From assembly GCA_013265495.1 (NCBI GenBank), contig MU057809.1, positions 436,001 through 500,000 on the forward strand: DNA of 64,000 nucleotides. The letters run 5' to 3'. This document shows positions 16,769 through 60,400 of this stretch, piece after piece. The DNA comes from Vicugna vicugna. Taxonomy: Eukaryota. Below the pieces are notes generated by a model that did not search any database, was not told the origin of the DNA, and saw only the letters and a program-made list of their open reading frames with translations. The position numbers and the translations under genes were made by a program. How positions within the stretch are numbered: the stretch's first letter is position 1; every line of letters begins with the position of its first letter.

Positions 16769-16814
16769 CTCGCAGCATCCCTTCTCCCAGGCTCGCAGCA
16801 TCCCTTCTCCCAGG
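16769..16814 (+). repeat. Perfect 23-bp tandem duplication
   Basis: CTCGCAGCATCCCTTCTCCCAGG x2. Confidence 0.95.
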
Positions 16815-20999: not shown

Positions 21000-21320
21000 A
21001 CTTTTTTGGGGGGTAAAAAATACGTAGCGTTTACCACCTTAATCGCTTTTAAGTGTACAGCTCAGGGGCGTTAAGTACGTTCACCAGCATCCGTCTCCGG
21101 AACTTTCTCGTCTCCCCAGTCTGACTCGGTCCCCATTAAGTCCTAGCTCCCCCTTCTACTCTCTGTCTCTGTGAACGTGACTCCTCCAGGCCCTCGCGTG
21201 GGCGAGGTCACCCAGTGTCCACCCGGGACTGGTCTGCCGCTCTGAGCGCCGTTTCCTCCAGCCTCGCCCGCGCTGCAGCAGGGTCCACACCTCGTTCCGT
21301 TTTAAGGCTGAAAATACTGA
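21000..21320 (-). mobile_element. L1MB-like 3' end, antisense, CpG-enriched
   Basis: TTTACCACCTTAATCGCTTTTAAGTGTACAGCTCAG...TTAAGTACGTTCAC...CTCTGTCTCTGTGAAC...TTTTAAGGCTGAA. Confidence 0.8.
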
Positions 21321-21562
21321 TTAATTCCCAGGAGAAAAACAGTACCTTCAGGTGGGAGAAAGGCAGCAGGTGTCAGCAAGTGGTCAGGTTAGCACCACCT
21401 GGGGCGGGACACACGCCCCTGTCCTGACACGAGGCCCGGGAAGGCGTGACATCACTTCCGGATCTTCCTGCCCAAATCGCACTCCCCAACGTGCGGGGTC
21501 ACGAGGAGACCCCACGAAGCCAAAGCGAGGGCGTCCTGCCAAACAGCTGGCCAGCCTTCTTG

Positions 21563-21703
21563 GTGGAGGCAATTTATTTATTTGCTTATTTTTAGAGGCA
21601 ATTTATTTATTTGCTTATTTTTAGAGGAGGTGCTGGGGATTGAACCCACAACCTTGTGCATGCTAAGCATGTGCTCTACCACTTGAGCTATACCCTCCCC
21701 CTT
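21563..21703 (-). mobile_element. Camelid tRNA-derived SINE (Vic-1-like) with 15-bp target-site duplication
   Basis: Minus strand GGGGAGGGTATAGCTCAAGTGGTAGAGCACATGCTTAGCATGCACAAGGTTGTGGGTTCAATCCCCAGCACCTCC has A and B boxes; TSD TGGCCAGCCTTCTTG at 21548-21562 and 21704-21718. Confidence 0.9.
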
Positions 21704-22294
21704 TGGCCAGCCTTCTTGACAAGCTGCCAGTGTCGTAAAAAGGACTGAGACGCTGTCCCGGGATGACGGTGATGACAGGGCGTGACAGCCACGTGCACGT
21801 GAGGTCCTGGGACAGGAGTCCTGTCTACACTCAGTGTGCTGGGGTGGGCTCGGGCCGCGGGCAGGGGCGACAGGCACACAGGCTGGGTTCTGCGGACCAG
21901 CTGTAAACCATCGGGACCGGCTGCGCCGGAGTGTTTACACCATGGAAATCGGCAAGCGGCACGAGGCGGAGCTTTCTGGGGGGCTGGGGGAGAGCTTGCC
22001 GGCATACGGCCGGCTCTGTCAGCGCTGGCGTGAGGGGGCTGGGGGAGGGAGCCTGGGGTGCCACGTGTTCTTCCACAGCAGTGTCACGGGTCTGACGTTA
22101 TTTCAAAATAAAGTCTTTCTAAAAATTGTAAAACCAGAGACTCAGTTCCTGGCAAACCACTAGCTTCTCTGTGTCCTTCAGAGACATCAGGACACTCAAG
22201 TCTGACACCCTCTTCCCTCAGCCCCTGGGACACCTCGCCCTCTGGTCTCCTTCATTTCCTCAGTCCCTTTCGTTTTCTGTAGGCTCTAAGTTCT

Positions 22295-38420: not shown

Positions 38421-39039
38421 GAAGCACGTGTGACCCCGGCTCGGCTGGCCTCCTCTGAAGACCACGGCGCCCCTCCCGCTGTCCCCGGCCCTGGGCCCAG
38501 CCCTCCCGCTGCTCCCGGCCACTGAGCAGGACTCCTGAGTGCTTCCTCCCCTCAGTCCGGCCACACCTCCCAGAACAACTTCCTCGTTACACCTCTCTCC
38601 CGGGGTGGCACCAGCCCTCAGTGGCGCGCGTCAGTCAGCAGACTTGCCCGCATCCCACCGTGGCTGTGGTCGTGGGGATTCGGGTTCACACACTGAAAGC
38701 CCCTTGCCCTGTGGGGACAAGTACATTACCCTGTGGACGGCACACAGAAAGAGCCGGACAGGAATCGGGAAGCCAGGCTCGGATCCCAGCCTCCCTGTGT
38801 GGCCCTGGGCAGGCCACTCGCCCTCTCTGAGCCTCACTGCTCACCTGAGACAGGGAGGTGGGATTGCCGTGGGAACAGAGCTGAGGCCCTGGGTGACGGG
38901 AAGCAGTCCATGTGAGGCGGGGTGGAGCTGTGAATAGCCTCTGTTGGCGGCACCCCCAGCTGCTGCCTGGGGTCCTCACAGAAGGCCCCCATGCCCACCA
39001 ACAGCCGCTCCGCAGCCCTGCTCCTCCAGCCTCCGGCCA

Positions 39040-39225
39040 CCGCCACTCCTCTCTGTGGGTTTGCCTCTTCCGGGCACTTTGAAGGAAGGGAATCCTACGC
39101 CAGGTGTCCTTTTGCGTCTGCTCACGTCACTCAGCAGGGTGTCCTCAACGTGTCTGTGGACACCACGGTGGCCCAGGCTGTGGCAGGTGTCAGAACTTCA
39201 TCCTTTTTGCAGCTGAACCATGTTC
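39040..39225 (-). mobile_element. L1MB-like fragment, antisense
   Basis: TTTGCCT.TTCCGGGCACTT..GGAATC...CCTTTTGCGTCTG..TCACTCAGCA...GTCAGAACTTCATCCTTTTT..GCTGAA. Confidence 0.65.
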
Positions 39226-39409
39226 CACTGCGCAGCCACCGACCGTCTTTGGAGGCCAGTGTGATCATGCTCATTTTGCAGATGTAAACGCTGAGCACCA
39301 GAAAGGCTTGTCTTGTCTTCTGAGCTTGCGACGGCAGGCTGCGAGGCCTCGGAAAGGCGTGGCTGCCGTCTCCAGTGCGCCTCAGCCCTCCTGCCGGCCC
39401 GCGTTTGTC

Positions 39410-40967
39410 TGTTACTGTTTTCCTTCTGCTGGAAGCGCCTCCTTTAGCATTTCTTGTAGTTCAGATCTGCGGGTGGTGGAATCTTTCGGCTGTTGTCCGT
39501 CTGGAAACGCCTCTGTTTCACCCTCAGTTCTGAAAGGTATTTTTGCTGGGTATGGAATTCTCAACTGAGGGGTTTTTCAGTGCTTTAGAGACCCTGCCCC
39601 ACTCTCCCGGCTGGTTTACTTCCACGACAAGCCTGCTGCCATTCTGTTCCTCTGAACGTGTGTCCTTTTTCCGTGGCTGCTGTTCAGGCTTTCCTCTTTA
39701 CCGTGGCTTTTAAGCATCGGCCTGATGCGCCTCGGGAGTTTGGCTCATGTTTCTTAAACTTGGAGTATTTTGGGTTTTTATCTGTGAGTTTACAGTTTTC
39801 ATCAAATTTGGTAAATTTTCAGCCAAAGTTCTTCAAATATTTTTGCTTCCCCATTTTTCCTTCAGAAACTCCGACTACATGTACGTTGGGCCACTGGAAA
39901 GTGTCTCACAGACAACCGGTGACTTTTTCATTTTAAAATTCTTGGCTCCATTTTCATTCTCTGTAACTTCTCTTACTGTGCCTTCAAGTTCCCTGATCTT
40001 TTCTTCTACCGTGTCTAATTTGCTGTTGATCCCATCAAGTGTACTTTTCATCTGAGACACAGCCATTTTCAACTCTGAAGTTTCAATTTGCTCTTTTTCC
40101 CCACATCTTCCATGTCTCTACTTAGCCTTTCAAACAGGTAGAGTAGTTATAATAACCGATTGAATGTTTTGTCCATTCACCCTAATGCCTGTTCTAACAT
40201 CTGTGCCAGTTCTGGGTCAGTTTTAGTTAACGGAGTACACTCCTTGTTGTGGGCCGTGTGTTTCTGCTTTTTTAATGCCTGATCATCTTCGGTCAGACGC
40301 CAGACGTTGTGACTTTCACCTCGCTGCTTGCTGGATGTTTTTGTATTCCTGCAAATGTATATGAGCTCTGGTTTGGGAATGCAGTTCAGTTACTGGAAAG
40401 CTGACCCCTTCTGGCTTTGCTGTTATTGTTGACTTTGTGCACCTGGAGTAGCTCTGAGCTGTGTGCTAACTGTTCCCCACGACGAAGCAAGACCTGTCTG
40501 AAAATTCTTCCCAAGTCCCTGTGAAGGATGAGTCTGCTGGCAGGAAGGGCATGCTCCCAGTGCTGTCCGAGTACCGGGCACTGTCCTCTTCCCCTTTTGG
40601 GTGGTTCCTTCCCAGGCCTTAGATAGTTTCCCCACCTGCACGCAGGAACGGGCTCAGAGTTCTGACTCTCGCCCCCTTTGGGTGCACTGTCCTCCCAGTT
40701 CCACCTTGGTCTCCCCAGACTCTTGGCTCTGCCTCAGGGAGTTTGCCAGGCCACGTCTGGCTTCTTTCTTTCTGCCTCATGGTGTAGAAATTCTCCCAAT
40801 GGCAGGACTCATCTCATTTCTCCCCTATTTTTCTGGAATCTCTGTCCTTCACTGCCTGATGTCCAGGGTCTTGAAAATCAGTCTTTCTTATATTTTGCAT
40901 GTGTGTGTGTTTTTTTTTAAAAGATGAACCTAATCCTATTACTTGATCTTGGATGGAAGTGGAAATC
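39410..40967 (-). mobile_element. Old L1 (L1M4/L1MC-ME or HAL1) 5' UTR plus decayed ORF1
   Basis: ORF 39875..40072(-) MKSTLDGINSKLDTVEEKIRELE resembles the ORF1p coiled coil; TTTAGCATTTCTTGTAGT..GAAAGGTATTTTTGCTGGGTAT.GAATTCT resembles the ORF1 C-terminal region; minus strand begins GATTTCCACTTCCATCCAAGAT like old L1 5' ends. Confidence 0.8.
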
Positions 40968-41769
40968 CCCAGACTATTCCCATTTCAGGAAAGTCAGAAC
41001 CCAGATGTGGACCCACTGGCTGACATCTGAGCCCTGGATCAAGCCAGGCCTGAAGTGATCTATCCCAGACATTTCAGCTCTAGGAGGCAACCAATTCCCT
41101 CTTCTAAGCTGGTCAAGCTGGGCTGTCTGCCCCTTGCTACTGCCAGTTTCCTCTTCGACCACGGCTGCCCAAGGCGGCTTCCCAGAGGTGAGACAGTGGG
41201 AGTGAGTGCAAGGCTAGGCCAGGCTGGGCAGGTGCAGGGGCACGAGGTGAGTGCCGTGCTTTTGAAAACCCACCCTGGCCAGGTGAGATGGGTGGATGGG
41301 TCTGATGTTTCCTACTCCCAGTCCTCTAATGGTTTCTCAAAACGTTTAGAAGAAAGCCCGGAGTCCTCAGGGTGAAGTGACAAGGCCCGGCCTCTCTTGT
41401 CCCGTCTCCTGCCCATCCTGCAGGCTACCCGCCCACTCCCACCCCAGGGCCTTTGCACCTACTGCACCAGCTGCCTGGGCCACGCCCTTGGGTATCTGTG
41501 TGGCTCCACAGTGAGCCTTGGGGTGCCCTAGACCCCCACACAGTGAGGTAGTACCTTCCCCTCCTGAGGACCTTACACCAAGGAGGGAACAAAAGAGAGG
41601 AAGCAGTGGCCCCTCAGAGGCTCCCGTGACCCCAGAGCGTCCTAGAACAGGCCCTACTGCCAGCCCGCCTCCCTGGGGCAGGGCTGGGGAGGCATGGTCC
41701 CAGACCTCCACACTGCCCTCCCCTGCCCAATATCCCTTCCAACAGAGAGGATGGGTAGGGGGAGCGAGG

Positions 41770-43050: not shown

Positions 43051-44219
43051 CGGGCTGAGGCTTGGACGGACAGCGTTCCCAGGAAGGCGAGAAAATGACC
43101 TGGGCGCGCCAGCTCCTGGGCCTCCTGGACCCCACCCCGCCTCCTCCACGAGACCGGCTGAGACCAGTCCTTGGCCCAGGAATGACTGCCCCAACCCTGG
43201 GCTGCACGGAGATCTGAGGGCTGAGCTTGTGCTGCCCTGGCCCAGCCTGTCAGCCTGAGTCGGGTGGGCAGGGGCAGAGGACGGAGGGGGCCCTTTACCG
43301 GGCCAGGCCATCCTCTGAGCACCGTTCACGGGTCTGCTTGCAGGTCAGGGTCCCTGCTGCTCTGGGCCCAGTGCCTGCTGCCGACTTGTGGGGGAAGGAG
43401 TGTGCGGCCCCAGGATTTGAGGGGTGGCTCCACACTGAGGCCCCAAGAGCTGCGGGGACTAGGCCAGGCAGGGCCCTGCTACAATGGGAGGTGCTTCCAA
43501 ACCAAGACCAGCACCCAGCAGCCGCCGCTCGGCACCAGCTTACCATCACCCGCTGGGTCCGCCAGTGTTTCACAGGAAGCCAGAAAAGTGAGCTTCGCAT
43601 GAGCTCACCTTGACGTTCGAGTCCAGGATAACAGATGCCATCCGCCAAACACCTGGGCGAGAGTGGTAGCCCACAGGCGGAGTGAGGGACCCACGCCGGC
43701 ACCTGCAGCCCCAGCACAGAACAGGTCCTCAGCAAATTCCAGAGGATGGACCAGAGGAAGGGTGGGAGGTGAAGCGGGAGCTGGCAGACAGGAGGACAGC
43801 CCAGGCCAGCCCTGCTGCGCAGGCCTCCTTGCCTGGCCACGCCCACCTTGGCTGCCAAATCCTGGCCCGCCCCCACCCCCACCAGGTCTGCGGACCTGCC
43901 CAGACGCCCCTAGACCCCTGCGCATGCTGAATCTGCGCCAAAAGGCAGGCAGACACAGGACTCTGCCTCTGGGCACGCTCTGGGGAGGCCAGCAGGACCT
44001 GTAGGGGTGAAGGAGGAACCCCAAGACCCCTGGAGGGTGTCCCCAGTGAGATATCACCCAGATGGGGGTGCTGATCAGGGCAGAGTGGGGACACCTGGGA
44101 TGGGCTGGCATGGGGGCTGCCCGGTGCCCCTCTCGGCCAGCCGACCTCCCAGACCTCTCCTGAGCCCAGAGCCAGGCACGCGGGCGACTCTGCCAGGACC
44201 TCTCTCCCCCGTGTTAGCA

Positions 44220-44325
44220 GGCAGTGATGAAATTTTTAAATAAGGCAAAAAATATTAAAACTCCCCCGAGTTTTATTAACTAGCTAGGTAATTACAAACT
44301 GGCCTAATTAAAACCCACCCGCGGA
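44220..44325. promoter_or_regulatory. Putative homeodomain-bound enhancer island
   Basis: TTTTATTAAC, GTAATTAC and CCTAATTAAAA. Confidence 0.5.
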
Positions 44326-45379
44326 AAGCACTGGTGGGCGGCCCGGCGGGAAGGGAAGGAGGGGGAGCTTCCTTGCTCTGAGACTCGGTTTCCCCAGGCG
44401 GAACACAGGGATGATACTAACTGCTGACCCAGAAGGCTGCCGGGAAGGTGAAACGCAGAGTGTTCACCTGCTCAGAGAGGCCAAGGGCCCCGCCCAAGCT
44501 GCACAGCACTGACTGGTGGGGCTGAACTTGACCCCTGGGAAGACAAGGGCTTCTCTTCCGTGCCTGACCCACGCAGGGGTGGATGCAGAGGGTCCTGGGG
44601 ACCCTCACTGAGAAAGCATGATCATGATCGGTCAGCATGGGGTCCGGGGGCCTGTGGAACTTCCAACCCGGACACGTCTTCCCTCTGAGAAGTAGCGGTG
44701 GAGTCAGGCCTTATGGGACGAGATGGGCTTGCTCACTGCAGAAGAGGGGTCCTGGAGCGGACACGCCTGGCGGAGGGCACGGCAGAGGCCAGGGCCAGGA
44801 GGTGCGGAGGCCTGGAGGTTCTGAGAGGCTGCAGCTTGTGGGGCAGGGCTGCGAAGAGGTGGAGGGGCCACAGGGGTCATGGTCTGTCCAGCTCCCTCCC
44901 CGACCGGGGCAGCTGTGAGCACGGGCTGGAGGGTGGGCGGCAGGGTCTGGGTGGGGGTGGGCACGAGCTCACCGGTCGTGGGACTTGGAGGGATGAGACG
45001 GAGACCCCAGACGGGCCTGACACCCAGTGGGGAAACCATGGCCGGGGAGGCAGGGGGTGTTCGGGGAGGAGCCCAAGGGGAAAGAGACAGAGACAGAGAC
45101 CCACCCAGGCTCGGGAGCGGGAAGGTGCCCCTTGCAGAGACGTAACCAGTCGCCTCCACTTGTCACCCAGAGGGGGTCCAGGCCTCTGGTGGTCCCCAGA
45201 CGCCCACTCCGTCACCCCCGCAGGAATTCACAATGGGTCTTCCCCCTTACCCTGACTCCAGCCCTGATAGCTCAGGGTGTCCCCACGCCAGACCCCTAGA
45301 CCCATCTGTCCACCAAAAGGGAGAGCTCCGCGTGGCAGCAGGGACTGCAGGGAGCCTGCGGGGTCACCCAGGGCTTGGC

Positions 45380-45510
45380 CACTGGCCAGCTGTGTGGCCT
45401 TGGCGAGTCATCTGACCCCAGACTCAGTTTCTCCATCTGTCAAGTGGGGTGAGGATCCCCACCTCCTAGGCTACTGAGTATGTTAAGCACCCAGCACACA
45501 GTAGGTACCC
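45380..45510 (+). mobile_element. MIR SINE
   Basis: AGCTGTGTGGCCTTGG...CTCAGTTTCTCCATCTGTCAAGTGGGG...CAGCACACAGTAGG. Confidence 0.8.
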
Positions 45511-46374
45511 TCCCCAGGGACCTGCCTGCCACCCCCCAGCCCATCCCCTCGAGACTGGGAGTCCTGGGTTCCCCGCAGTCTGTTCTGGCTGCCGTCCCCA
45601 CAGCTCATAAACCCCTGAGCTTTGATCTGTCCTCATTCCGTCTCGGCCGGCCAGAAGAGATGGGGGCTCTTCCCAGCCCGTCCCCCTCACCCCACTGCCT
45701 CCATTAACCTCTGCACTCCTGCCGGAAGGAGCAGCTCCAGCCCTGGCCCGTTCCCATGGCGGAGGCACCTCGAGGGTGGGCTTCGAGGGGGGTCCGAGGG
45801 CCAGCCTGGGAGAAGGTCCTGCGAGGAAGAGCCCAGGGCCCGGGGTTATGCTGGGCGCCAGGAGACACAGGCTGGCAGTCGTGGACACTGGCAGCCTCAA
45901 CCCAGACCCGCAGTCTCCCAGAAAGAGCCCGGGGCAGTGTGTGGGGGAGGCAGGAGAAATCACAGGGAGGGCCCGGAGACTTCTCGGCTAAAGGTCCCTG
46001 GCTGCCGGGAGGGGAGGGGAGCAGAGGGGACATCTTCCTGTCACAGCAGTGTCACCATGGGGTCTCTGTCTCAGCTCACGTGGGGCCCGGCCCCTGCTCC
46101 CTCCCCCGCAGACCTCAGGAGGACCCCGGTCCTGCTGGCTCTGCCTCTGTGCTGTGTGACTTTGGGCAAGGCCCTGCCCTCTCTGGGCTCCTGCCCCGTC
46201 CAGGCCTCCTGTGGCCCCTGTGCTGTGAACTCCGTGGAAACTGCACCACGACCCGTCTTACCCACCTTCTCACTGAGTGCTCCGGGGGCTCCCTGTGCCC
46301 GGCACGCACTGCCCAGAGACGGCACGGAGAGGAGGAGGCCCCCACCACATCCTCACGCCCCCGACGTCGGCTCC

Positions 46375-46775
46375 ATCTGCAATCGACACATTTCCCTCCC
46401 CGACAGGATGCATGTTCTCCCTGTCGGGTTTACAAATAACTTCAAATTTTACTGTTTTCTTTCCCTAATGAATTCCCTGAACCGTGTTACAAGCTCCCCG
46501 GTAATGAATGTGGGGCGGTGGGGGCGGTGGGCCCGGTGGGCCGCGGTCCTCCACGGGCTCCCAGTGAGGCGCGGCTGAATTAGCCTCACAGCGCAGAGCA
46601 CATGGTCCTGACGCAGCCCGCTCGCCGCAATGGTGGGAATCCATTGTATTGACAACATCCATTTGTGTGATTCCTGATTCGGATTTTGTGCTGAACTGTG
46701 TTTGAAAGGCTCTGCTGCCCCTGGTTACCTCTTTAATTGTGCTTAAAAATCCAGATTAATTCAGAGGTGAAGTTG
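46375..46775. promoter_or_regulatory. Putative enhancer cluster
   Basis: TACAAATAAC, CTAATGAAT, GTAATGAAT, CATTGTATTGACAAC (SOX-like), TTTAATTG and GATTAATTC. Confidence 0.55.
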
Positions 46776-48548
46776 ACCGCGCTGGGTAGGGGCCTTGCTG
46801 GGCCCGAGCCGTCGATGGCTCCCGGGTCCCTGGAGTGGTCGCTTTCACAGGGAGCTCCCCAGTGATGCCTCCAACACACTCACAAGCCCCCTGGGAGCTG
46901 CCAGAAACCCTCTGGGTGCAGACGGGGTGGCCGGGAGCCTGGCGGGCAGGAAAGGGGGAAGGCAGCTCCTGGACATAGAGCGGGGTCCACCTATGGCTGC
47001 CTCGGTGGGCGCGCGTTCGGTGACTCCCACTTGAGAGGCAAGAAAGTTAAGGCAGAGACCCAGTTGCCCAGGGCCCTCAATCGGCGAGCGGGTGGGTCCG
47101 GGCGGAGCCCCCCTGAAGGAGGCTGGGAGGCTTTGCGCGGGCCCCAGCTCCTCCCGCCATTCACGAACCTGAGGGGTTCAAGGGTCCCCTGGTCCCACTC
47201 CCCAAAGTTACTGGTGGAGAAACGGACAGAGCAGCTGAGGGCTGCGGGTCACATGGAGGGGTGGTGACATCCGCCCAAGGTCAGCCTCTGGTTCCGCCAT
47301 CCTGTCGATTCTGGGCTGTTCTCCCACTGCGGGGGGCAGTCGCTGGAGAGGGGGAGCCGGCCAGACAGGCATCCCAGGCGGGAGCGAGGACCTGGGGTCC
47401 AGCTGAGCCAGGTCCAGATCCTGGCTCCTCCCCAACTTGCTTGGACAGTCCTTTCCCTCTTGAGCCTCAGTTTCCCCATCTGGACAGGGGAGTCCGGACA
47501 CTGAGCTGGCAGGGCTTCTGTGCAGTTGAAGGTGATGCTCGGTGGTCTGTGTCTGCATGGGGCCAGCATGCAGTGGGTGCTCAGCAGAGCTGGCTGAGGT
47601 CGAGGGCATGGCCGTCAGGGAGAGGTCACATTTCCCTGTGCTCCGCCCCTCAGGTCCCAGGAGGCTGGGGGCGGTGAGGCACTCATACCCCACCTCTCAC
47701 CAGGGGCGTCCATCCTTCCAGCACATCACACGCAGAATTTCCGGGAGGTGGGAGCACCCCCAGAGCACTGCCCCACGCCCTCAGGCAAATCTGAACCGGA
47801 CCCCTGTGTCAGGCGGGGGTGGGGTGCGAGAGCGCCAGCTGCTTCCAACCACGCCCGAGACCTGTCCAGGCCGCCTGCTCTGGAACCCAACCCCACCCAC
47901 AGGAGGCCCTGCCCTTTGCCCCCTCTGAGCCCCGTGTCTGAGCCCATCAGACCGGGATGGCCAAGCCCGAAATCAGCTAAAGGTGGGGCAGAGGGGAGCT
48001 CCGCTCCCCCAGGGGTGCACAGTGGAGGAAATACACCTGATCATGGTGACCCCCCAGCAGGGAGCAGCAGGCAAGGTGATGGGCCTTCTTGGGTGGGCCA
48101 TGCACTGCAGAGCGCTCTCAGGAGGGGCTGTGGGGGCGGGGGGAGCGGGATGACATGGGCCACAAGCTCAGCAGAGAAGTGGTCCAGCTGAGGCTGCCTC
48201 CAGGGCTTGCGGAGGGAGGGGATCGGCCCCCAGAGGTGATCTCACCTGGGGGCCTGGGGTTGGGGCGCCCGCGTCACCCGGCCACGACACAGGCTGACCT
48301 GGGGAGAGGGGTGCAAGTGTCCAAGTGTCTGCCCTTGGCCAGTGGGGGGGCGCTTCTGGGAGGGGGCACCTGTGAGCCACCAGCAGCTGGGCGAGAGGAA
48401 AGCTGTCCTGGCAAAGGGGCCCCATGCCTCCCATCACACAGGGAGGAGGTGGAGCCCTGAAATCGGGTCTGGGGCTCAGCAAAGCCAACGGCACCTCGCC
48501 TTGCTCAGCAGATGGCACGCACAGACACTCCTGGGCACAGCGCTCAGC

Positions 48549-48779
48549 GGCTCTCCTGAGATGCAAGGGGGAAAGCAAGTGCCAGGCAGGTGAGCAGGGC
48601 AGGTGGGCAGGGTGGGGGCAGCGGGGAGCCAGGAGACCTGGGTGCACTGTCCCTCGCAGGCTGAGTAGCCTCGGGAGAATGCCTGCACCTCTCTGGGCCT
48701 TTGGTGGGATGAGATGATCCCGCCTGGCTCCGAGGACCAGAGGACCAGGGGAGGAGGGGAACCAGGGCAATGCATGATG
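48549..48779 (+). repeat. Left arm of inverted duplication (partner 55139-55366)
   Basis: Manual alignment gives ~16 differences over ~215 bp; ORFs 48424(+) and 55202(-) share AGEQGRWAGWGQRGARRPGC.VPRRLSSL.RMPAPLWAFG.MR. Confidence 0.95.
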
Positions 48780-48799
48780 TGCCTCACCAGTCATGTCTC

Positions 48800-48865
48800 A
48801 CCAGTCGCAGAACTGTGCAGCCTTCACCACGGTCAGTTTCAGAGCATCTTCATCACCCCAGTAGC
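48800..48865 (-). mobile_element. Short antisense L1 3'-end fragment
   Basis: CAGAACTGTGCAGCCTTCACCAC..TCAGTTTCAGAGCATCTTCATCACCCCA. Confidence 0.6.
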
Positions 48866-49319
48866 AGCCCTTTTTTCATTAACTTGTCCCTAAGTATTTG
48901 ATTCTGTTTTTGCACACACATTTGGAAGACCTCTAGTGTTGGTTTCTGCAAGGGGTTAAAAAAATCTCATGTGGTGGAGGAGGCTGGAAAGAAGTGGGAT
49001 TTGGGTGGAGGGAGACCCCTCTATCTCTGCATAACGTTTACCCCCAAATCCAGCAGCTTGGAAGAGGCTCGGCAGAGAGGAAGTCTGCCTGTGGCTTCTC
49101 GTCCTGTCTCCAGATACCCGGACCCGGCTCCCCGGGCAGGGCCCAGGCTCCACTCTGTCCCCTAATGGAGAGCAGGCCCTTCCCCAGGGCAAGCACGCTT
49201 TCACGTCCTGGAGGGACGGAGACCTCGGCAGGCTCCCAGAGGAACCCCAAGTTTGCCCCTGACCCACAGTTCCCTCCTCCATTTACAACTGAGCTTCTGG
49301 GCAGGGTTCTGACAGCCAC

Positions 49320-49670
49320 TGGTAATTAAATGCGGGGCTCAGGGCCTCCTACCACTCCCAGCCACGGCTGCAGGGCCAGGCCTTCACCTTCCCAGGGCCG
49401 AGATGCCTCTGCCAGGAAGTCCCCCGCACACCAGCCGAGTTATTTACTTTCCTTAATAACCTTTCACGAGGGCCTCACCGTGGCCTTCAGCAGAGCAGAG
49501 GAGCCGGCTCTGAGGTCGTCCTTTGGATGTGATTTTATTAACTTAAAGTTGGGCCCCCGGCAGGTTAAGCAGCAGCCCTCCCCCAACAACCCCGGGCTGC
49601 ACCGGCTGGACGCCTGGCCCTCCTGCTCTAGTTGTGGTGTGGCTCGGCCCGGTTTAATTAAATCCTCCCT
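49320..49670. promoter_or_regulatory. Putative enhancer island
   Basis: GTAATTAAAT, TATTTAC, TTTTATTAAC and TTTAATTAAAT. Confidence 0.45.
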
Positions 49671-49859
49671 CCGCCCGGCCAAGGGCGGCCTGCACGGGCG
49701 GGAGACCCACAGCGCCTTCTAACACACGGCTGCCACCTGCCTCCTCTCCCCCACGCTCCTGCCCACCTGCCTCTGAACAGCAGGCCTGGGTTTTTTAAAT
49801 TAATCAATTGTCTATTTAATCAATCAAAATCCATCCATTTTATTTAATCCCATAATGAA

Positions 49860-50290
49860 TCAATCGTATCAAGGTATAATTTACATGTGATAGAATGTGC
49901 CTGCTTTCAGCGCACGGTTCGATGTGTTCTGACAGCTCTACACTGGTGAAAAACACCCCCACAGTCAAGGTGGCGCTGCCCTCACCAGGCAGCATGGTGG
50001 CCACGGCCACGGGGGCCGCTGAGCCCTTGAGAGGTGGCTGGTCCCGGCGAGGTGCGCTGTGCTCGTGAAACACACACTGGGTCCCCAGGACTTAGTCCGG
50101 AAAAGAAATCCCACCAAGTAGCTCACTGGTGACTTCCTCAGTGGTTTCCTGTTGAACGGTGACTTTCTGAAGGTGAAGTAACACAACACATTATTGAAAC
50201 TGACGTCACCTGTCACCTTTGCTTTTTGAGTGCACCCACGAGAAAGTTTAAAATTACACCAGTGGCTCGCGAGAGGTCCTGGGGCAGCAC
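49860..50290 (-). mobile_element. Antisense L1ME end (49860-49975) followed by a MER33-like element (49975-50290)
   Basis: AAGGTATAATTTACAT...; ATGGTGGCCAC..GAGCCCTTGA..GTGGCT...AGGACTTAGT...AAAGTTTAAAATTACA..GTGGCTCGC. Confidence 0.65.
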
Positions 50291-51019
50291 AGAGTCCCCA
50301 TGCGCTGCAGGCCTCCCCCGTTGCTGCCGTCCAGTCCTGACTGTGCCCCTCGGAGCCCCAGATCCCCATCTGTGAAGTGGGGACATGGATGCTGCCGCCT
50401 GGGCTCATCGGGGGTGCCCCAAACATCAGAGGTGATACGTCTGCAGGGCTCCCAGCACGGGTGGGCCCCCCGCACCCTGGGAACCCAGCTGGGTCCCCTC
50501 CGTGGGTTCTTGGCACTGACCCTGCCGTCCAGCTCAACATCCTGGTAAGCTCCAGAAGGTTGGAGCTGCAGGCAGGGGGAACCCCCTGTTCTCATACTCC
50601 TCAGACTTTGGCTCGCGGGGGTTATTTGCAGGCAGGGCAAGAACAAGGTCCCCAGAAACTCTCCCACAGTGTCCGTCCAGTCTCTCCCCGGCACCTGCCT
50701 ACCCGCCTCAACCCCTGAGCCCAGCGGTCTCCCTGCCCGCTGGCCCGGCCGTGAGGATTCCGGCGTCAGGGAGCCCAGCCTTGCCAACACCCTCTTCCCT
50801 CGCTGTGGAGCCAGGCCCAGAGGGGCAACACCTCACCCCACTGTGGGGGCCCCACTATGCGCCAGGCCCCCACGTGGGCACTGGGGTGGGGCGTGGCACC
50901 AGACCGCCCCAGACAGACCCCGGTTTGCTAACAGCTTCTCCGAAGCAGAGCACCCTCCGGCGCAGAGGAAGTCAGAAGTGAGGCCCCGTCGGGGAGGGCC
51001 AGTGCTGACCACGGGTCGG

Positions 51020-51670
51020 GGCGTCTGAGCGTCAGTCCACCGCGACGGTGACGTTTTGTGGCCCACGGAGTAAGAAGTCCACCCGCCAATGCTGACGCAG
51101 AAGTAAACCCGGGAGGGAGAGCGCTTCCTTAGAGCACGACCCAAATGCATAAACAACACGGGATTCCGAGAAGTTACCTCCGGCGCCAGCTTAGAAACCA
51201 AGGTTCTAGTGAGAGTCGTGGTTGACGCCGAAGCGGCAGGTGACACGGGAAACAGTGTCTGCAAGGATCTGCCCACAGGCAGCCTCACCGGTGGCCGTTC
51301 CCGGCCGGCGCCTCCTGGCTCGCGGCTCGGGAAGGACGCGGCATCCCGGCGGCTCCTGCGCAGCTCACCCGGCCCGGGGGGGGGAAGGCGCACGGACCCG
51401 GCGGGGGGCGTCCTGCCGCCGCGTGCCTGGCCTTCCGAAATGTCGATTTCACGAGAGAGAGGCCGAGGGGCACACGTGGAGGGTCCTGCGCGTGCGGACG
51501 GGGCTCGGGACGGGCGAGGCGGAGGTGCCGCGAGGCACGCGGGGTGGCCAGCCGGGCGTGAGCGCGGCAGGAGGGCTGGAGCCTCGCCCCGCGGTGTGAG
51601 GGCGCCGGCACCGCGTGGGAGACACGCAGTCTCAGGCCCCGCTGAGCGCGAATCCGCATGTTCGTAATTT
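51020..51670 (+). mobile_element. CpG-island-like segment, probably an L1MC-like 3' UTR remodelled towards GC
   Basis: Very high CpG density; colinear motifs CTCCTG..GAAGGACGCGGCATC..GGACCC..GGGGCGTCCT..CTTCCGAAATGTCGATTTCACGAGAGA..AGGCCGAGG track the recalled L1MC4 3' UTR. Confidence 0.55.
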
Positions 51671-51823
51671 TCACCTTTGACGGCTTTGTCGAGGTGACGC
51701 CCATATTTGAAGGGTACGCGTAAGTCCTGACTAACGTGCACACCCGTGAAACCATCAGCACCGTCCAGCTAAGGAACGCATCCATCCCCCGCGCAGCTTC
51801 CGGCCGCCGCCCTGTAACCGCGC

Positions 51824-51945
51824 CCGTAACCCTAACCCCGCCTCCCGTAGCCCCGCCCCGTAGCCCTAACCCCGCCTCCCGGAACCCCGCCCCGTAACCC
51901 TAACCCCGCCTCCCGTAGCCCCGCCCCGTAGCCCCGCCCCGCCCT
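51824..51945. repeat. 34-bp minisatellite (3 copies plus partial) with telomere-like hexamers and GC boxes
   Basis: CCGTAACCCTAACCCCGCCTCCCGTAGCCCCGCC-type units start at 51824, 51858 and 51892, partial at 51926. Confidence 0.9.
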
Positions 51946-53808
51946 GCCGTGCGCGCTCCCCGAAGACCCCGTTGAGCGCTAACCTGTGTCGGTAGCTTAG
52001 TTTGCGTCGCCTACAATTTCACACAAACGGAATCGTGCAGTTTGTATGTGTTTGGGTCTGGCTTATTTCACCCGCGACAATAATTTGGGGGTCCCCCTAT
52101 GTGACTGCAGCTATCAGCTGCTCACCCCTTTTCGGGGCTGAGCGGTATTCCCCCGAACGGATCCGCCGCGGCCTGTTTCCGCGCTCACCGGGGATGGACA
52201 CCCGGGGTTCAGCTCTCACATCGCTGTTCCGAGCATCTGCGGACAGTCTTCGCCTGGACAGGCCTTCTTCTCCCTCTCGGGTAAATACCTAGGCGCACAA
52301 CGGCCGGGCTGTGAAACAGGCACGTGCTCTCCATTTTAGGGACTGCAGGCTGGCTTCCAAAGCAGCCGTAGCACTTTCCGCTCTGCCAGCCGTGTGCGAA
52401 AGGTCCGTCTCTTCCAGAGCCTCACCCACGCTTTCCAGGGTAAACCGCCTTACCCGCAGCCCCCCGAGGGGTGTGGGCCGGTGTCTCACCGCGCAGTTGC
52501 ATTTCCCTAGAGACCAGTAACGTGAGACATTTTTTTCCACACTTATTTTTATTATAGTTTTTTAAGTGGATGCCTGCTAGGTGCGATAGGCTTTTTTGGT
52601 TGCTGTTTTTCTTCGTTTGATTTTTGTTTTTGTTTGTTTTCCCTTAATGGAGGTGCTGGGGATTGAGTCCCTCGTGCACCAAGCGTGGGCGCTACCCCTG
52701 AGCTCTAGCCGCCACCCACACTGACGTGGGACATGTTTTCCTGGACTTGCTTGCCATCTGTGTGTCTTCTTTGGGGAAATGTCTATTGAATATTTTACCC
52801 ATTTTCGCATGTTTTCAGTGTTTTCTTGCTGAGTTTGAGGGTTCTTTATTCTGATTTGAGTCTTTTTTCAGCTGACCCTGCCGTGCGCGCTCCCCGAAGA
52901 CCCCGTTGAGCGCTAACCTGTGTCGGTAGCTTAGTTTGCGTCGCCTACAATTTCACACAAACGGAATCGTGCAGTTTGTATGTGTTTGGGTCTGGCTTAT
53001 TTCACCCGCGACAATAATTTGGGGGTCCCCCTATGTGACTGCAGCTATCAGCTGCTCACCCCTTTTCGGGGCTGAGCGGTATTCCCCCGAACGGATCCGC
53101 CGCGGCCTGTTTCCGCGCTCACCGGGGATGGACACCCGGGGTTCAGCTCTCACATCGCTGTTCCGAGCATCTGCGGACAGTCTTCGCCTGGACAGGCCTT
53201 CTTCTCCCTCTCGGGTAAATACCTAGGCGCACAACGGCCGGGCTGTGAAACAGGCACGTGCTCTCCATTTTAGGGACTGCAGGCTGGCTTCCAAAGCAGC
53301 CGTAGCACTTTCCGCTCTGCCAGCCGTGTGCGAAAGGTCCGTCTCTTCCAGAGCCTCACCCACGCTTTCCAGGGTAAACCGCCTTACCCGCAGCCCCCCG
53401 AGGGGTGTGGGCCGGTGTCTCACCGCGCAGTTGCATTTCCCTAGAGACCAGTAACGTGAGACATTTTTTTCCACACTTATTTTTATTATAGTTTTTTAAG
53501 TGGATGCCTGCTAGGTGCGATAGGCTTTTTTGGTTGCTGTTTTTCTTCGTTTGATTTTTGTTTTTGTTTGTTTTCCCTTAATGGAGGTGCTGGGGATTGA
53601 GTCCCTCGTGCACCAAGCGTGGGCGCTACCCCTGAGCTCTAGCCGCCACCCACACTGACGTGGGACATGTTTTCCTGGACTTGCTTGCCATCTGTGTGTC
53701 TTCTTTGGGGAAATGTCTATTGAATATTTTACCCATTTTCGCATGTTTTCAGTGTTTTCTTGCTGAGTTTGAGGGTTCTTTATTCTGATTTGAGTCTTTT
53801 TTCAGCTG
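51942..53808 (+). repeat. 933-bp tandem duplication (51942-52874 and 52876-53808)
   Basis: Four ORFs are repeated identically at offset 934; one extra A at 52875 lies between the copies. Confidence 0.97.
52537..52723 (-). mobile_element. Diverged camelid-type SINE inside L1 (second copy at 53471-53657)
   Basis: TAATGGAGGTGCTGGGGATTGA...GCTACCCCTGAGCT with a T-rich tail; flanked by a diverged TSD-like pair ACGTGAGACATTTTT / ACGTGGGACATGTTTT. Confidence 0.7.
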
Positions 53809-55138
53809 TATAGTTTGCAGGTACTCCTCCGAGCTTAGAGCTGGTCGTCTTGTCCTCTTCGTGCCTCTCGAAGGGCAGATGTTTTCATTTCCATAAAGTC
53901 CCATGTATCAATGCTTCATTTTATGGACCACGGTTTTCATGTCACATCTAAGAAATCCTTGCCACCTCCAGGTTACAAAGATCTTACCCTATATTTCCTT
54001 GTAGAAGTTTTACCATTTCAGTTTCCGTTTCAGCCCATGATCCATTTTGAACCTTTATACGTGGTGTGAGGTACGGACCCAAGATCTTTTGTGCGTGTCT
54101 AGCTGCTCCAGGACTGCTGAGAAAGACCGCCCTCCCTTCTGAGGAAAGTGTTGCCTTCACACTTTCCTCAGAAATCAGCCACCCATATACGTGTGTGTCC
54201 ACCTCTGGCCTCCGTTTTGTTCTGTTGATCTCTCTCCGTCCCTTGTGCCAGGCCCACACCGTGCTGATCACCGTCACCTTATAACGAGTCAGAACCAGGC
54301 AGCATCCGCCCTCCAAGCCTGCTCTTCCCTGTCCGAGCTATCCTGGCTGGTCGAGGTCCTTTGCATTTCCACATGAATTTTAGAATCAGCCTATCAGTTT
54401 CTCCAGAAAGCCTGCTGGGATTTGGTTTCAGATTGCCCCAAACTCCCTGGAGCCTGGGACCTCCGGTGTGGTCACCAGCCCCTGGCCTCACCAGTCATGT
54501 CTCGCTGGGCACAGGAGGGAGCAGTGGGGCGGGGAGGGGGGCTCGACACCCAGGTGCGAACCCTGGCTCTGTGCCCAGCTTGCAGGCGACCTGTCACTTC
54601 CTTTCTCCAAGCCTCCTCACTGGTGACCTGGGGACAGTGGCGCCTGAGTCCAGAACGGTTGAGGACTGAGGGTGAGGATGGTGGGTGAGAGGGACTTCCT
54701 GGCCAGGGTCTCTGAGCTGCCCCTGCGGCGGGCCCCGCAGGAAGGGTCCCTGTGCTGCCCTGTCCACTGGCACCATGCTGCCCCCAAACTGTCAGCAGCC
54801 TCACCTCTGCTTAGTGAAGACAGTGCTTATGAAGGACAACTTGTGGAGGGAGCTGGACTGTCTCCCAAAGTCCACCTGTGTCCTCCAGTGAAAATAAATA
54901 AAGCAAATAGGGCGCTTACTCCTGCCCGGGTGGCGAGGGCGGGCCGCTCTGTGGACGAGAACGCTTGCAGACCCGCTCCCAGCGACTCTGTGCACTGACT
55001 TGCCGTTCCTTTGTCCACACTCTGTGTCCAGGCCCTGCAGCCACTGGGGAGGCCCGTGGCCGCACAGCCCGCCCGGCCCTGGGGGCTCCTTCCCGTGAGG
55101 CCTAGCCGGGCAGACGGGAAGCCGAGTCCCGTGGTTCC

Positions 55139-55366
55139 CATGGTGCATTGCCCCTGGTTCCCCTCCTCCCCTGGTCCTCCGGTCCTCGGAGCCAGGCGGG
55201 ATCATCTCATTCTGCCAAAGGCCCAGAGAGGTGCAGGCATTCTCCTGAGGCTGCTCAGCCTGCGAGGGACAGCGCACCCAGGCCTCCTGGCCCCCCGCTG
55301 CCCCCACCCGGCCCACCTGCCCTGCTCACCTGCCCAGCACCTGCTTTCCCCCTCCTCAGCAGAGCC
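55139..55366 (-). repeat. Right arm of inverted duplication (partner 48549-48779)
   Basis: Reverse complement aligns to the left arm at ~92% by manual count. Confidence 0.95.
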
Positions 55367-55371
55367 ACCCC

Positions 55372-55495
55372 AGCTATTTACCATGGACTCACTTAAGTTG
55401 GTTAATTTTTAATAATGTTGAAATTTCCATGTGAATAATTCAGGTAAATTATTTATTAAAGTGCGGGATTAAGGGATCAGGAGAATTACCAGGGG
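55372..55495. promoter_or_regulatory. AT-rich enhancer-like island directly next to the right inverted arm
   Basis: TATTTAC, GTTAATTTTTAATAATG, TAATTCAGGTAAATTATTTATTAAAG and GGATTA. Confidence 0.55.
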
Positions 55496-56364
55496 ACAGT
55501 GCTACCTGCACGCGGTCAGGGCGGGCGGGGCAGGCATCACACACACCCTCACCTGCCTCACAGCCCAGGACGCTTTAACCATCAGCACCCGGGCTGCAGC
55601 CACACAGGGCAGTTTTGTGCTAGTGGCAGCGAAGGGGCTTTTGGGGACACGCAGCTGGTGCACGGGGCCTGGTAGCCTGGCGAACCTGGCTCCGTCTACG
55701 CAGCTGTGCGGGGATGCGGGGCCTCAATCCAGCCCCAGGGAGAGAGGGCGCTCACGTCCCTGGGCAGCTCTGAGCAGCCCTGCATCTGTGACGTGGGGGC
55801 GAGGCCCTGCTCACCGGGAGCAGCACGGATTCTGGGTCTCACTCTGCCGGGTTCTGTGTCCTGCGGGGGCACCGAAGGAGGGCTCCCGGGAGCGGGGAGC
55901 AGGGAGGGGGCGGGCTGGAGCCAGGCCGCAGGGCTTCCACCCGGATGCCTCTGCCTGCTGACCTGGCCCCCCCCCAGCCCCTGGGTGCCCAGCTGTAAAG
56001 CCAGGATAACACCGCCTCCCGCACTGCGTGGGGGCGGGGCTTACACGCGGTAAGGATCACAGAGTGCTGCAGGTCAGGAGCAACAACACTACAGAGCCAT
56101 GAAGAGAGTCCAGCTGGAGCCACGCCGCGGCCCTGGTCCACACCAACCTCTGGTAACAGGAGGGGACACGCCCACCAGGCCCACGGCAGGCGCTCCATTC
56201 ATGGTCGTCTGCCTACAGAGGGTCCTGGCCGGGGAGGGGGCCCAGATTCAGCCCGGGACCCAACCCCTGTCAGGGCAGGACCGGGGACCGCAGGCGGGGC
56301 TAGAAGCAGGGAGGCGCTCCTGGTGACCCAGCCCCAGAGATACTCAGCCCCCAGGCAGGGCCCA

Positions 56365-56900
56365 GCAGTTACAAATCATTATTAAAAGTAACAGTCGGTG
56401 GCCCAATCAACAAAATCAAGCACTTGAAGCTTTACATGTTTCATCATTAAAAGGGAGGCCCTGCCGGTGCCCCCAGTTAAAGTGATGGGAAACTGAGGCC
56501 CAGAGAGGGGAGGGACCTGCCTGAGGTCACACAGCTGGAAGGGGCCCACAGCCAGCGAGACGTGCTCACGGGATGCCCGGGGGGTGGGGACCCCAGAGCG
56601 GGGTTGACAGCCCTTCCCCCACTTTCCTGCTCCCACTCCACGGGTGGGGCCGTTGGGAGCCCCTGGCCAGGCCCCATTTAAAGATACATTCCTGTTAGAA
56701 CCCACCCTACGTGTCTGATTTAATCACAAAGTGCTGATTCCCACAAAGTGGGGCACGACCCGGGTCATTTCGTGGAAATGAATTTCCCAGGAAAGTGGAA
56801 ATTGTCACTTTATTATGGGATTAAAAACATTCAATCCATTTGAATAATAATGGAAAATAGGGGAAGTCCAGGTCCTTCCTCTCCTCTTGTTACGGAATTA
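56365..56900. promoter_or_regulatory. Bipartite putative enhancer split by a MIR (~56480-56540)
   Basis: AATCATTATTAAA, CACTTGA (NKX2-like), CATTAAA, TGATTTAATCA, TTGTCA, TTTATTATGGGATTA, ATCCATT; MIR core GATGGGAAACTGAGGCCCAGAGAGG..CCTGAGGTCACACAGCT. Confidence 0.55.
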
Positions 56901-57239
56901 GGATCCACCAGAGGGGCGGGAGGTTCCGGAAACAGTGTCTGTGGCCCCCAGGGCTCTTCTCACGGAGGGGGTGTTTCCAGAGGAAGGGGAGGCTCCCCTA
57001 TCCCGGCCTCCCGACCTCGACACTCTGCAGGGCCCTCGCCAACCCCGGTCACCTGTGTGGTTCCCAGCTCCTGCCTTCGCCCGGGCTGTCCCCGCCCTGG
57101 GTCCTCCTGGGAGCACCCCGCCCAGCTGCCAGGCGCTGGGACCACAATTCTGCATCACCCCACGGGATGCTCAACAGACACCCGCAGACGGGTCAGCACA
57201 TCGTGAACGAGAAGCCTGTGTCACACATGTGCGCGCTCT

Positions 57240-57415
57240 GCTGCGGTACAAAACACGTAACGCGAACCGTGTCCTAACCACGTTGCAGTGCACAGTTCAG
57301 GGGCGCTGAGCACGTTCACACTGTGAGCGCGCAGCCATCACCCTGTCCGTCTCCAAGCTCTCCATCTTCCCAAGCTGACACTCTGTCCCCTTTGAACACC
57401 TCCTCCCACTGCCCC
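57240..57415 (-). mobile_element. L1MB-like 3' end, antisense, CpG-enriched
   Basis: GCGGTACAAAACACGTAAC...AGTGCACAGTTCAG..AGCACGTTCACACTG..GCAGCCATCACC..CATCTTCCCAA.CTGA.ACTCTGTCCCC. Confidence 0.8.
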
Positions 57416-60400
57416 CTCTGTGTTGTACCTTCTCTATTGTGTGATTACGTCTGTATCATATTTCCTACATCACATGTTCCGTGACGTTATGCTGGTGGAC
57501 AGGGCCCCAGCCTGGAACCCAGAGATACAAGCACGGGGTCCCAGGACCCTGATTTTCATAAGCCCCTGAGAAAGACAGCCAGGCGGCTGGACCCCGAGGT
57601 GAAAACTCCTTGCTGGAGAGGAAAAGGAGGGGCCACCCCAGCTCCGAGGGTGCAGGATGGGGAGACCCCAGCAGGGCCACCGCGATCACTGAGAGGAGGC
57701 CAGGTGCCGCCCTGGGGACGGTGGCTGGACCGTCGGCCGGAGACATGTCTGCACCCAACACCCTGTCACCTCGGGTGCCCACATGAAGGTGGTAAAAGGG
57801 AGACAGCCGCTGCCTTTTCCTGCGCGTGAGACAGCCCAGCTGCCCCAGGGGCTGCCACCTGCACCCTGTGACCACCATGGCCAGCCCCCCGGACAGGGGC
57901 TGAGCGGTGCTCTTGTCGTGACAACAGGGGAGGAGGCGGCAGAGGGAAGTCAAGAGATGAGAAGGAGGACGAGTGAGGCCCCTGCTCTGCGGAGGGAGGG
58001 AGAGGCCAGCGTGTGGACAGGGGTCGGGATGAAGACGCGGGCTGGGGCCAGGTGGGGAGTGCCTCTTCCCCTGCAGAGGTGGGAGGTCATGCCGTCCTTG
58101 GGAAATGAGAGTGAGGGACTCAGGGGTGACCTCCTGCTGCGCCCGCCGTCCTCACTCCTTCCTGAGTGTCAGGGCTGTGCTGGCCCCGAGTTGGGGTGCG
58201 CCTCCCCCACGGGTGTTTCCCACGGACAGGAGCCCCCCGAGAGCCCTGTGGTTCCTGCCAAACTCCGGCGCTCTCCAGCTGGAGTGTTGGAGAGCTCTGC
58301 TCTGGGCCCGGTCTCTGTACCCAGAAGTGGGGCTGCTCGCCTCTCCCCCAGTAGGTCTCCCTCCCAGCTCTGACCACTCTCAAGGGCCAACTTGGGCCCC
58401 CACGTGGCCTGGCATTTACACACTGTCCCGGCCAGGCTGAGCGATGCCCACTGGCATGGCCCCAGCTGCCAGCCCACCTCCGGGCAAGACTTGGGGTCTC
58501 CAAGGTGGAAACACTGTCGCACCTTTTCCCTTCCAGGGCGAGCTGTCCGCCGTGGGCAGGTGGGAGGTGTCCTGCAGGGGACTGGGGGATCAGGTCCTTG
58601 TTGCTGGGGAGGGGGCGGGGGGACAGGGCTTCGCTTTTCGCAGGCGGGGCTCACAGGGCAACACTGTGGCTGAGGGCAGGCGGGGAGAGGGCGGGAGGGC
58701 TGAATCAAGGCCCAGAACCCCCGGGGGTACCTCGGGGACTTAGCTGGTCCCCTCTGGGATGGAGAGCAGACAGGCCTGGAGCTCAGGTCCCCGGGGGCCC
58801 CACTCCCGACCCTCCCCACGGCGCCGTGCCCTCGGCCCTCACCCATCTCCTCAGGGAGCCCTTCCCAGCTGCTCTTGGCTTGCTGCCCCCGCCCCAGCTC
58901 TGCTCACCTCTGCAGGACGGGCGGGGTGAATGAGCGCCCTCCGGCCCCCCAGCCTCCAAACCCCTCCTGGGGGCCCCTGGGAGGAGAGACGCCCGTCCCC
59001 GTGGGCACCTGTGTAACCAGCGCAGGCCCTCCCAGCCAAGGCCACTGGTTCACTGGTCTTTACATCCTGAGCCCAGAGCAGGGGCTGGAGACTGGACTGC
59101 ACCCCGGGCAGTGCTGCCTGGGCTCGGGGCCGCCCCGTCCTGCCACTCCGCGCCAGGGCCCCCGCCCCCAGCTGGCACCATGCCCTCTTAGAAGTTCTTT
59201 TTGGCTCCTGTTACCAGGGTCAGCTTTGGGGGACTTCAAACCAGCGACCACAAAGCGCACAATAGGGGCTGAGAGGAAGCACATGTATGTTCTGCATCAG
59301 GCCATGGGCCTTACTCATGTCAGAGGAACGTACTGAGCGCCTGCTGTATACCAGGGACCGCTGTAGGCCCTAGGGAGAGGGCGGCCCACAGGACAGACGG
59401 GCCTGGTCCCCAGCGCAGGCGTCCTCCCGGGACAGACCCACACGGAGCACATAGCCTGGAACAAACAAGGTAATTGGAAGCAGCAGAAACCGAGCACAGC
59501 CCCGCAGAGAACCCGGAGCTGCGGGCCGAGGCAGCCCAACCCTAAACCGCCCGCCGTGCCATTGTGCAGACCAGCTCTGTGGTCGGCGGGGCAGACGGCC
59601 GAGGGCACGACCCGCGCCTGCTCCACAGTGTCGGGGCCTGAGCCCGAGGCTGCCAGGAGCTGGGGTGACTTGGCGGCGGGCTGAGCCTCCTGTGGGTGCC
59701 CTCCCTCGCGTTCCTGGGGCCCCTCCCGGCCATCAGCCAGGACCCCTCCTCGTGACTGCTGGGCCGCAGGGGCCCAGACACTCTTCAGAGCCCTTCAGGG
59801 AGGGGGCTGGAGGAGGAAACTGGGCCCAGAGAGGTGACCCCACCTTCCAGGTTCACACGGCAAGATGTGGCCAGGTGAGGTCGTGGCACCGGACAAAGCC
59901 CCAAACATCTGAGTGACCCCGGGTCTGGCCCGACGGAGGTCGCTGGCCCCCAGGCCTGGTCTGGCAGAGGGCGAGGGGCCCCAGAGCCCCAGGAGACTCG
60001 GCTCTCCCCGGGGGAGCCTGGCTGGCCGGCTGTGAGGACAACCACAGGACAGCTCACACTCAGGTGCCGCTCTGAGCGCTGACCTGCCGGAAGCCGTCAG
60101 CCCCACCAAGAAACAGGTGCAGGGAGGTGAGTGACAGCCTGGTCTCCCTCTGAGGAGGGCTGTGCGGCGAGAAGATCTGGTCCGGGCACCCCAGCCCCTG
60201 AGCCGTGGGGAGATGCCACAGCATGGTCCCCGCTCAGCCAGGAGGCGCTCCTACCAGACCGGCGGGCGAGTTCCCTAAACCCAGCACTGCCATCAGCCAG
60301 GCTGCAAGCTTCGAGAAGCAGGGCGCCCCCAGGGGCCCCCAGGAGCATAAACAAGCTGGGGGGTTCCCGTGGGAGCCAACCCAGCCCCGGGCATCCACCC

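Follow-up and report, generated by a model that had tools for sequence, protein, structure and literature searches.

The CpG island described here occupies 51020-52500 of the window, that is, the whole 64-kb stretch of DNA that was analysed, in a genome of 2.03 Gb. It carries 154 CpG, with an observed/expected ratio (o/e) of 0.98 and a GC content of 0.65. The first-pass annotation had singled it out as the most CpG-dense stretch of the window, and this is borne out, as equal-length windows elsewhere in the 64 kb reach at best 94 CpG or an o/e of 0.77, and the window as a whole has a GC of 0.62 and a CpG o/e of 0.44. Under a CpG-island cut-off of at least 500 bp, GC of at least 0.55 and o/e of at least 0.65, the qualifying sequence extends over 50671-52630 (GC 0.64, o/e 0.90). 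This island, of about 1.6 kb, consists of two dead, originally AT-rich L1-type repeats in which A/T has been replaced by G/C; the two fossil spans, elements A and B, cover 1394 of the 1583 bases of 50963-52545. The earlier description recognized the fossil nature of the island, and overlooked that it contains two different elements in opposite orientation, a minisatellite and an exact 933-bp duplication. The features of the locus are as follows:

50963-51471, plus strand: element A, derived from the 3' portion of an ancient interspersed repeat, placed by consensus alignment (ancestral GC 0.36-0.41, now 0.52-0.76)
51278-51660, no strand: GC peak of the island (GC 0.77, 56 CpG, o/e 1.00)
51661-52545, minus strand: element B, 3' end (3' UTR and end of ORF2), an antisense LINE-1 fossil lying tail-to-tail with element A
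51818-51934, no strand: 34-bp minisatellite, 3.4 copies, arisen from a C-rich patch of element B
51942-52874, plus strand: tandem duplication copy 1, 933 bp, whose left breakpoint lies where the minisatellite ends
52543-52720, minus strand: younger tRNA-derived SINE inserted into element B, with a diverged target-site duplication of about 20 nt
52876-53808, plus strand: tandem duplication copy 2, 933 bp, 100% identical to copy 1
53809-54435, minus strand: ORF2 part of element B, beyond the island, placed by consensus alignment

Consensuses were built solely from paralogues in the same genome (GC 0.35 for A and 0.33 for B, one CpG each), and alignments were scored with a matrix set to local GC against a null of dinucleotide shuffles. 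Element A, putatively an L1MC/L1MD-type 3' UTR, belongs to a dispersed AT-rich repeat family homologous to 50963-51471, with 758 candidate copies, and is also found in the window at 3405-4207 and 21311-21810. Its consensus was derived from 35 paralogues, the duplicate loci L044, L052 and L063 having been removed before profile building. Against this consensus 50963-51277 scores 61-67 bits, with a shuffle maximum of 32 (0/200 as high), the core at 51278-51471 scores 22.5 with a shuffle maximum of -0.9 (0/200), and 51278-51690 is collinear with the family (z of 3.7-6.3 over 16 settings). Taken by itself, 51520-51720 does not reach significance against family A (49/300 shuffles score equally high), so 51472-51660 is assigned to A by collinearity only. 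The L1 homology formerly proposed for 51020-51670 thus holds against shuffles within 50963-51471 and, for element B, from 51661 onwards, and for 51472-51660 by collinearity. The two motifs on which that proposal drew are indeed present at 51334 and 4139 and coincide in position on the family-A consensus. When 51000-51700 is aligned directly to 3700-4300, the score is not significant (221/300 and 81/300 shuffles as high), and the island copy of A went undetected by blastn self-comparison, by blastn with 8 paralogues and by nhmmer with 8- and 35-copy profiles; in addition, the sole match of a genome search with 51000-51680 was the query itself, and that of a first pattern search was the window's own copy. 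The paralogues of A share more upstream sequence, and a collinear ORF2 match directly upstream was not seen in their short flanks.

Element B, which overall spans 51661-54435 and is interrupted by the minisatellite and the SINE, aligns to its consensus from 51661 on with a score of 301, against a null maximum of 40. It has been identified as LINE-1 through the frame 53987-54337(-), which matches residues 878-981 of the human LINE-1 ORF2p (E of 0.0006-0.003); the frame 54282-54479(-) shows no L1 match, and 8 short frames show no Pfam L1 match. The family is dispersed and AT-rich (441 candidates, 44 matches) and supports a collinear alignment over consensus positions 5-1604. Paralogue statistics for B come from the 37 of 63 aligned rows that passed a length filter, and its 3' UTR has a consensus coverage of 17-29 rows, with 41 further matches located outside the row set. 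At 52100-52288(-), the end of ORF2 is now an Arg/Gly/Ala/Pro-rich frame, the codon-level face of the GC shift.

The direction of the substitutions was read against these majority consensuses of mixed subfamilies, which serve as ancestral states, and 51520-51720 and 51815-51990 (minisatellite and insertion) were omitted from all counts. Compared with them, the island shows A/T-to-G/C (W->S) changes at 348/762 sites and the reverse (S->W) at 53/430, with a GC* of 0.79. The paralogues run the opposite way (W->S 0.13-0.14, S->W 0.24-0.25, GC* 0.35-0.37; leave-one-out rates over 35 copies of A and 37 segments of B). The AT-to-GC rewriting of L1-type fossils claimed by the first-pass annotation is supported, the directions being strongly W->S rather than balanced, including in non-CpG contexts: the bias persists at sites that are not CpG-prone, outside TG/CA and CpG, and in transversions (25 vs 8). 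Within element B, 51661-52545 displays W->S 207/487 and S->W 37/280 with a CpG o/e of 0.99, and 53656-54435 displays W->S 141/517 with an o/e of 0.50. The counts for B are stable at well-supported columns and under four alignment matrices, which rules out a matrix artefact for this element. GC-conservative changes are not raised (0.049 in the island, 0.052 in other fossils of the window, about 0.04 in paralogues). A W->S excess with unchanged GC-conservative changes is what GC-biased gene conversion (gBGC) predicts, as set out in PMC11161765, and from these counts we infer that gBGC is the probable cause of the bias.

Most of this W->S drive is common to the whole region and not specific to the island. 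At non-CpG-prone sites, W->S is 253/629 and S->W 60/487 over seven further fossil segments of the window, and 129/306 and 26/216 in the island (p=0.57 and 1.0, respectively), which corresponds to a GC* of 0.77 in the other fossils and 0.78 in the island; most of the rewriting is thus regional. Element B is more affected on its island side than downstream (0.36 vs 0.27), and the paralogue baseline behaves likewise (0.17 vs 0.14). The intense local hotspot previously suggested accordingly finds no support island-wide. A local excess appears only in the SINE at the island edge (p=0.002, see below) and in a 190-bp core delimited post hoc, where non-CpG-prone W->S is 26/38, compared with 31/74 when consensus positions are matched (p=0.01). 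The W->S rate of the core, 0.65, is no different from the 0.66 obtained when its sequence is shuffled, i.e., it is at saturation, so that, given homology, it restates composition. The local extras that do distinguish the island are its CpG retention, the 77%-GC core, the GC-shifted young SINE at its edge and the GC-box minisatellite. Elsewhere in the window, 3431-4090, 20441-21970, 39001-39570 and 56821-57610 also lie on fossils of family A or B and pass the CpG-island cut-off. The least GC-rich part of the window is a T-rich repeat fossil at 39400-41000 (GC 0.44-0.50, low CpG), which is about 60% identical to 4 retrieved loci.

Where the CpGs of the island come from can be read from the same columns. 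TG/CA has become CG at 56/199 positions in the island, vs 59/365 in the other fossils of the window (p=0.001) and 7/102 just downstream, and the CpG o/e within element B, 0.73-1.24 in the island, is only about 0.5 once the SINE has been passed. Swaps between TG and CA are no less frequent in the island than in the other fossils (11/199 vs 19/365), which counts against the explanation favoured below. The earlier view that the CpGs were created rather than inherited agrees with the finding that columns inferred as ancestral CpG are now CG in 4/15 cases, the same as the 47/175 of ordinary TG/CA columns, a comparison with small numbers and noisy column calls. As ancestral CpGs were not preferentially kept, the elements would have decayed first, and the island, with new CpGs, would have arisen afterwards. 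One could argue for a CpG-rich promoter of ancestral origin, or for L1 copies that already had many CpGs when they inserted and escaped decay, on the grounds that majority consensuses under-call ancestral CpGs. Nevertheless, just 37/479 of the TG/CA/CG consensus columns look like ancestral CpG, the 4/15 still CG contrast with about 10 expected had they never been methylated (p of 0.001-0.025), the bias extends beyond TG/CA and CpG, and the DNA is repeat-derived; inheritance of the CpGs is rejected by these counts, and this origin is largely refuted and extremely improbable.

The younger structures of the island are informative on how long the process has lasted. The minisatellite contains TAACCC units and four G4-type motifs on the minus strand, together with 4 of the window's 19 perfect CCCCGCCCC GC boxes (51851-51940). 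The edge SINE at 52543-52720 is presumably a vic-1-like element, which would point to a camelid. An element of the name vic-1 is listed for camels in SINEBase (PMC3531059). The core of this SINE shows W->S 8/30 and S->W 2/33; its W->S count exceeds the 31/434 of 14 paralogues (p=0.002) and the 2/33 of the window's SINE at 21.6 kb (p=0.04), with the reservation for both comparisons that copy ages may differ, and the excess suggests that the bias went on after the SINE had inserted. The 933-bp tandem duplication starts within the island and has one extra base at its junction; being exact, it may be either of very recent origin or a product of misassembly. In public runs of three related organisms, 0.73-0.91 of the words of 50500-54500 are present (20/24 rows, 7 studies); these figures are uninformative on the duplication and on SNP direction. 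Perfect short tandem duplications, of 18-29 bases, also occur in the window at 16769, 21566, 28604 and 30973, and a 100-bp direct repeat (182-282 and 1149-1248) is 79% identical. The island is also bracketed by an inverted 232-bp pair (48549-48779 and 55139-55366), 90.5% identical, with only one other match, of 40 bp, genome-wide. After the left copy come 19 bases identical to 54485-54503, an arrangement that resembles a two-piece templated insertion, and two positions are TG in one member of the pair but CA in its partner, the pattern left when CpGs decay in methylated flanks.

It could be argued that no local process is needed, and that the island is the high extreme of regional variation, heightened by two neighbouring fossils and a CpG-rich minisatellite, in which case the regional bias could even be mutational. 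Consistent with this notion, 15 stretches of the 64 kb pass the CpG-island cut-off (14 besides the island), several of them on fossils, the CpG-masked GC of the island core is equalled by 2.9% of the windows elsewhere, and the GC peak exceeds its background by a ratio of just 1.20. The distance between 154 CpG and the next best 94, and between an o/e of 0.98 and 0.77, the TG/CA->CG excess (p=0.001) and the excess in the edge SINE speak against it and render this reading improbable.

The explanation that we favour, to which we give about an even chance of being correct, is that regional gBGC, followed by local germline hypomethylation with a modest hotspot, made the island. According to this model, two AT-rich L1-type elements would have inserted tail-to-tail into a region under long-lasting gBGC. 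As these fossils were AT-rich, TG/CA-rich and far from the regional equilibrium of about 0.75 GC, many new CpGs would have appeared, and a gain of new CpGs is indeed seen in every fossil examined in the window. At the island the new CpGs would also have been kept, most likely because germline methylation disappeared from the patch at some point after the elements had inserted. The GC-box minisatellite perhaps helped in this loss, a role for GC boxes that belongs to general background knowledge. An unmethylated CpG-rich patch may in turn draw some PRDM9-independent recombination, which would account for the additional GC of the core and for the GC shift of the young SINE. The outcome would be an orphan CpG island.

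Simulations, with rough error terms, rounded o/e values for the other fossils and a bias strength B expressed relative to paralogues, are compatible with this order of events. In a constant regime, the island is fitted by a B of 1.5 and a CpG hypermutability r of 1-2 (chi2 of 1.8-5.1, rising to 25 at r=8); the same B of 1.5 with r of 5-8 fits the remaining fossils of the window. A two-phase regime with full methylation and a strong late pulse, in which B is 6 for the final 30% of the time, fits the island nearly as well (chi2 5.0, in a range of 5.0-7.6), so that in these models hypomethylation on top of regional gBGC and a late methylated hotspot perform about equally. The latter would make the locus a methylated 'BGC island', in which a late and strong local hotspot alone added CpGs faster than deamination removed them; this corresponds to the hotspot of the first-pass annotation with neither hypomethylation nor function. 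In addition to the fit, the core (26/38 vs 31/74) and the edge SINE (8/30 vs 2/33) agree with such a hotspot, and the duplication breakpoint, the minisatellite and the nearby inverted copy suggest local breaks. However, an island-wide non-CpG excess is absent, the island and downstream sides of element B both run at about twice the paralogue rate (kWS of 0.49 against 0.22 and of 0.34 against 0.17, respectively), and 51661-51815 reaches an o/e of 1.24, yet its non-CpG-prone W->S is just 12/46. We regard this late hotspot as a rather unlikely alternative. The hypomethylation and hotspot readings are not mutually exclusive, as many mammals whose PRDM9 is intact have been described to use hypomethylated loci as hotspots (PMC11161765).

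Searches for coding or structured RNA sequence yielded no Pfam match among the 60 of the window's 168 long ORFs that were searched, a search that short exons would escape, and no Rfam match in 44000-60000. The promoter or Polycomb role, and the developmental enhancers among which the first-pass annotation placed the island, find no support in the analysis. Short AT-rich patches in which the words TAAT/ATCAAT/GGGATTA recur lie in GC-rich surroundings at 49780-49900 and 55380-55480, and by eye could be conserved enhancers. Selection might have built the island and maintain it as a promoter, an enhancer booster or a Polycomb nucleation site: GC boxes are present, and species-specific orphan islands have been associated with enhancer marks, many of them overlapping gBGC tracts, in the account of PMC11170920. 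Against this, all nearby fossils show the same non-CpG bias, the searches above found no gene for the island to serve, and the sequence is highly divergent and not constrained, which makes selection a very improbable cause. The genome also contains a PRDM9-like locus, L075 (G000:C4951:30966-33270), with matches to SSXRD and to three PR-domain exons; the three exons inspected (SSXRD and two PR) are open and have GT/AG ends, and judging from these exons the lineage may keep PRDM9.

Islands made by gBGC already form a known class, and the locus is a single instance of a described process. BGC-class CpG islands are a named class in the classification of Cohen et al., as described in PMC4121359, and the island shares with them a CpG richness that would stem from biased gene conversion and not from an old unmethylated promoter. 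Unlike in that work as described, the ancestor is read here from repeat paralogues and not from orthologues, and reduced CpG decay is also indicated. In the dog, many newly gained and mostly non-genic CpG islands have been attributed to gBGC (PMC4350167), and GC peaks have been reported at CNV breakpoints (PMC4053742). Like those described in both sources, our island is new and non-genic, with raised W->S, low CpG loss and an internal copy-number breakpoint. The dog-type definition of a GC peak (GC over 500 bp at least 1.5x the 10-kb background) does not capture it, as the background of 62% GC holds the ratio at 1.20, and, unlike canids with their PRDM9 pseudogene, this genome has the PRDM9-like locus with its three inspected exons open. 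PRDM9-independent hotspots at hypomethylated loci in placental mammals, including those with intact PRDM9, are documented in PMC11161765, and resemble the island in being CpG-rich patches of 1-2 kb with high GC* that are compatible with an intact PRDM9. As far as that source goes, they differ in that non-CpG GC* exceeds the flanks here only in the 190-bp core, and in that they are conserved orthologues and not repeat-derived; camel and alpaca are absent from its main text. Finally, gBGC and transposons have been named as sources of new orphan CpG islands, with turnover at enhancers (PMC11170920), a link of orphan islands to both agents that our locus shares. The difference is that transposons bring the CpGs in the cases presented there, and AT-rich fossils gain them later here, where the evidence comes from sequence alone. 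A literature search on camelid PRDM9 or camelid CpG-island evolution returned nothing relevant, and islands written over AT-rich L1 fossils were not found in the titles and abstract beginnings of the searched literature, which included few subscription papers and supports no claim of absence.

A more general, and doubtful, proposal is that AT-rich L1 fossils in high-recombination regions of this apparently camelid lineage act as seedbeds, to which regional gBGC would add CpGs until one of them escapes methylation, perhaps triggered by a GC-box minisatellite, and becomes a self-sustaining PRDM9-independent hotspot as well as an unstable, active new CpG island. If so, the locus would display the successive stages, namely a decayed L1, a GC-shifted younger SINE, a minisatellite and a fresh duplication. 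The origin of new CpG islands and of PRDM9-independent hotspots poses a chicken-and-egg question. A repeat-derived island offers both an ancestor that can be read and, in its old L1, its younger SINE and its fresh duplication, a built-in clock, with which one methylome and one SNP set could separate 'hypomethylation first' from 'hotspot first'. Such islands need to be compared with neighbouring fossils and not with genome-wide copies, a comparison in which most of the apparent local signal vanishes here.
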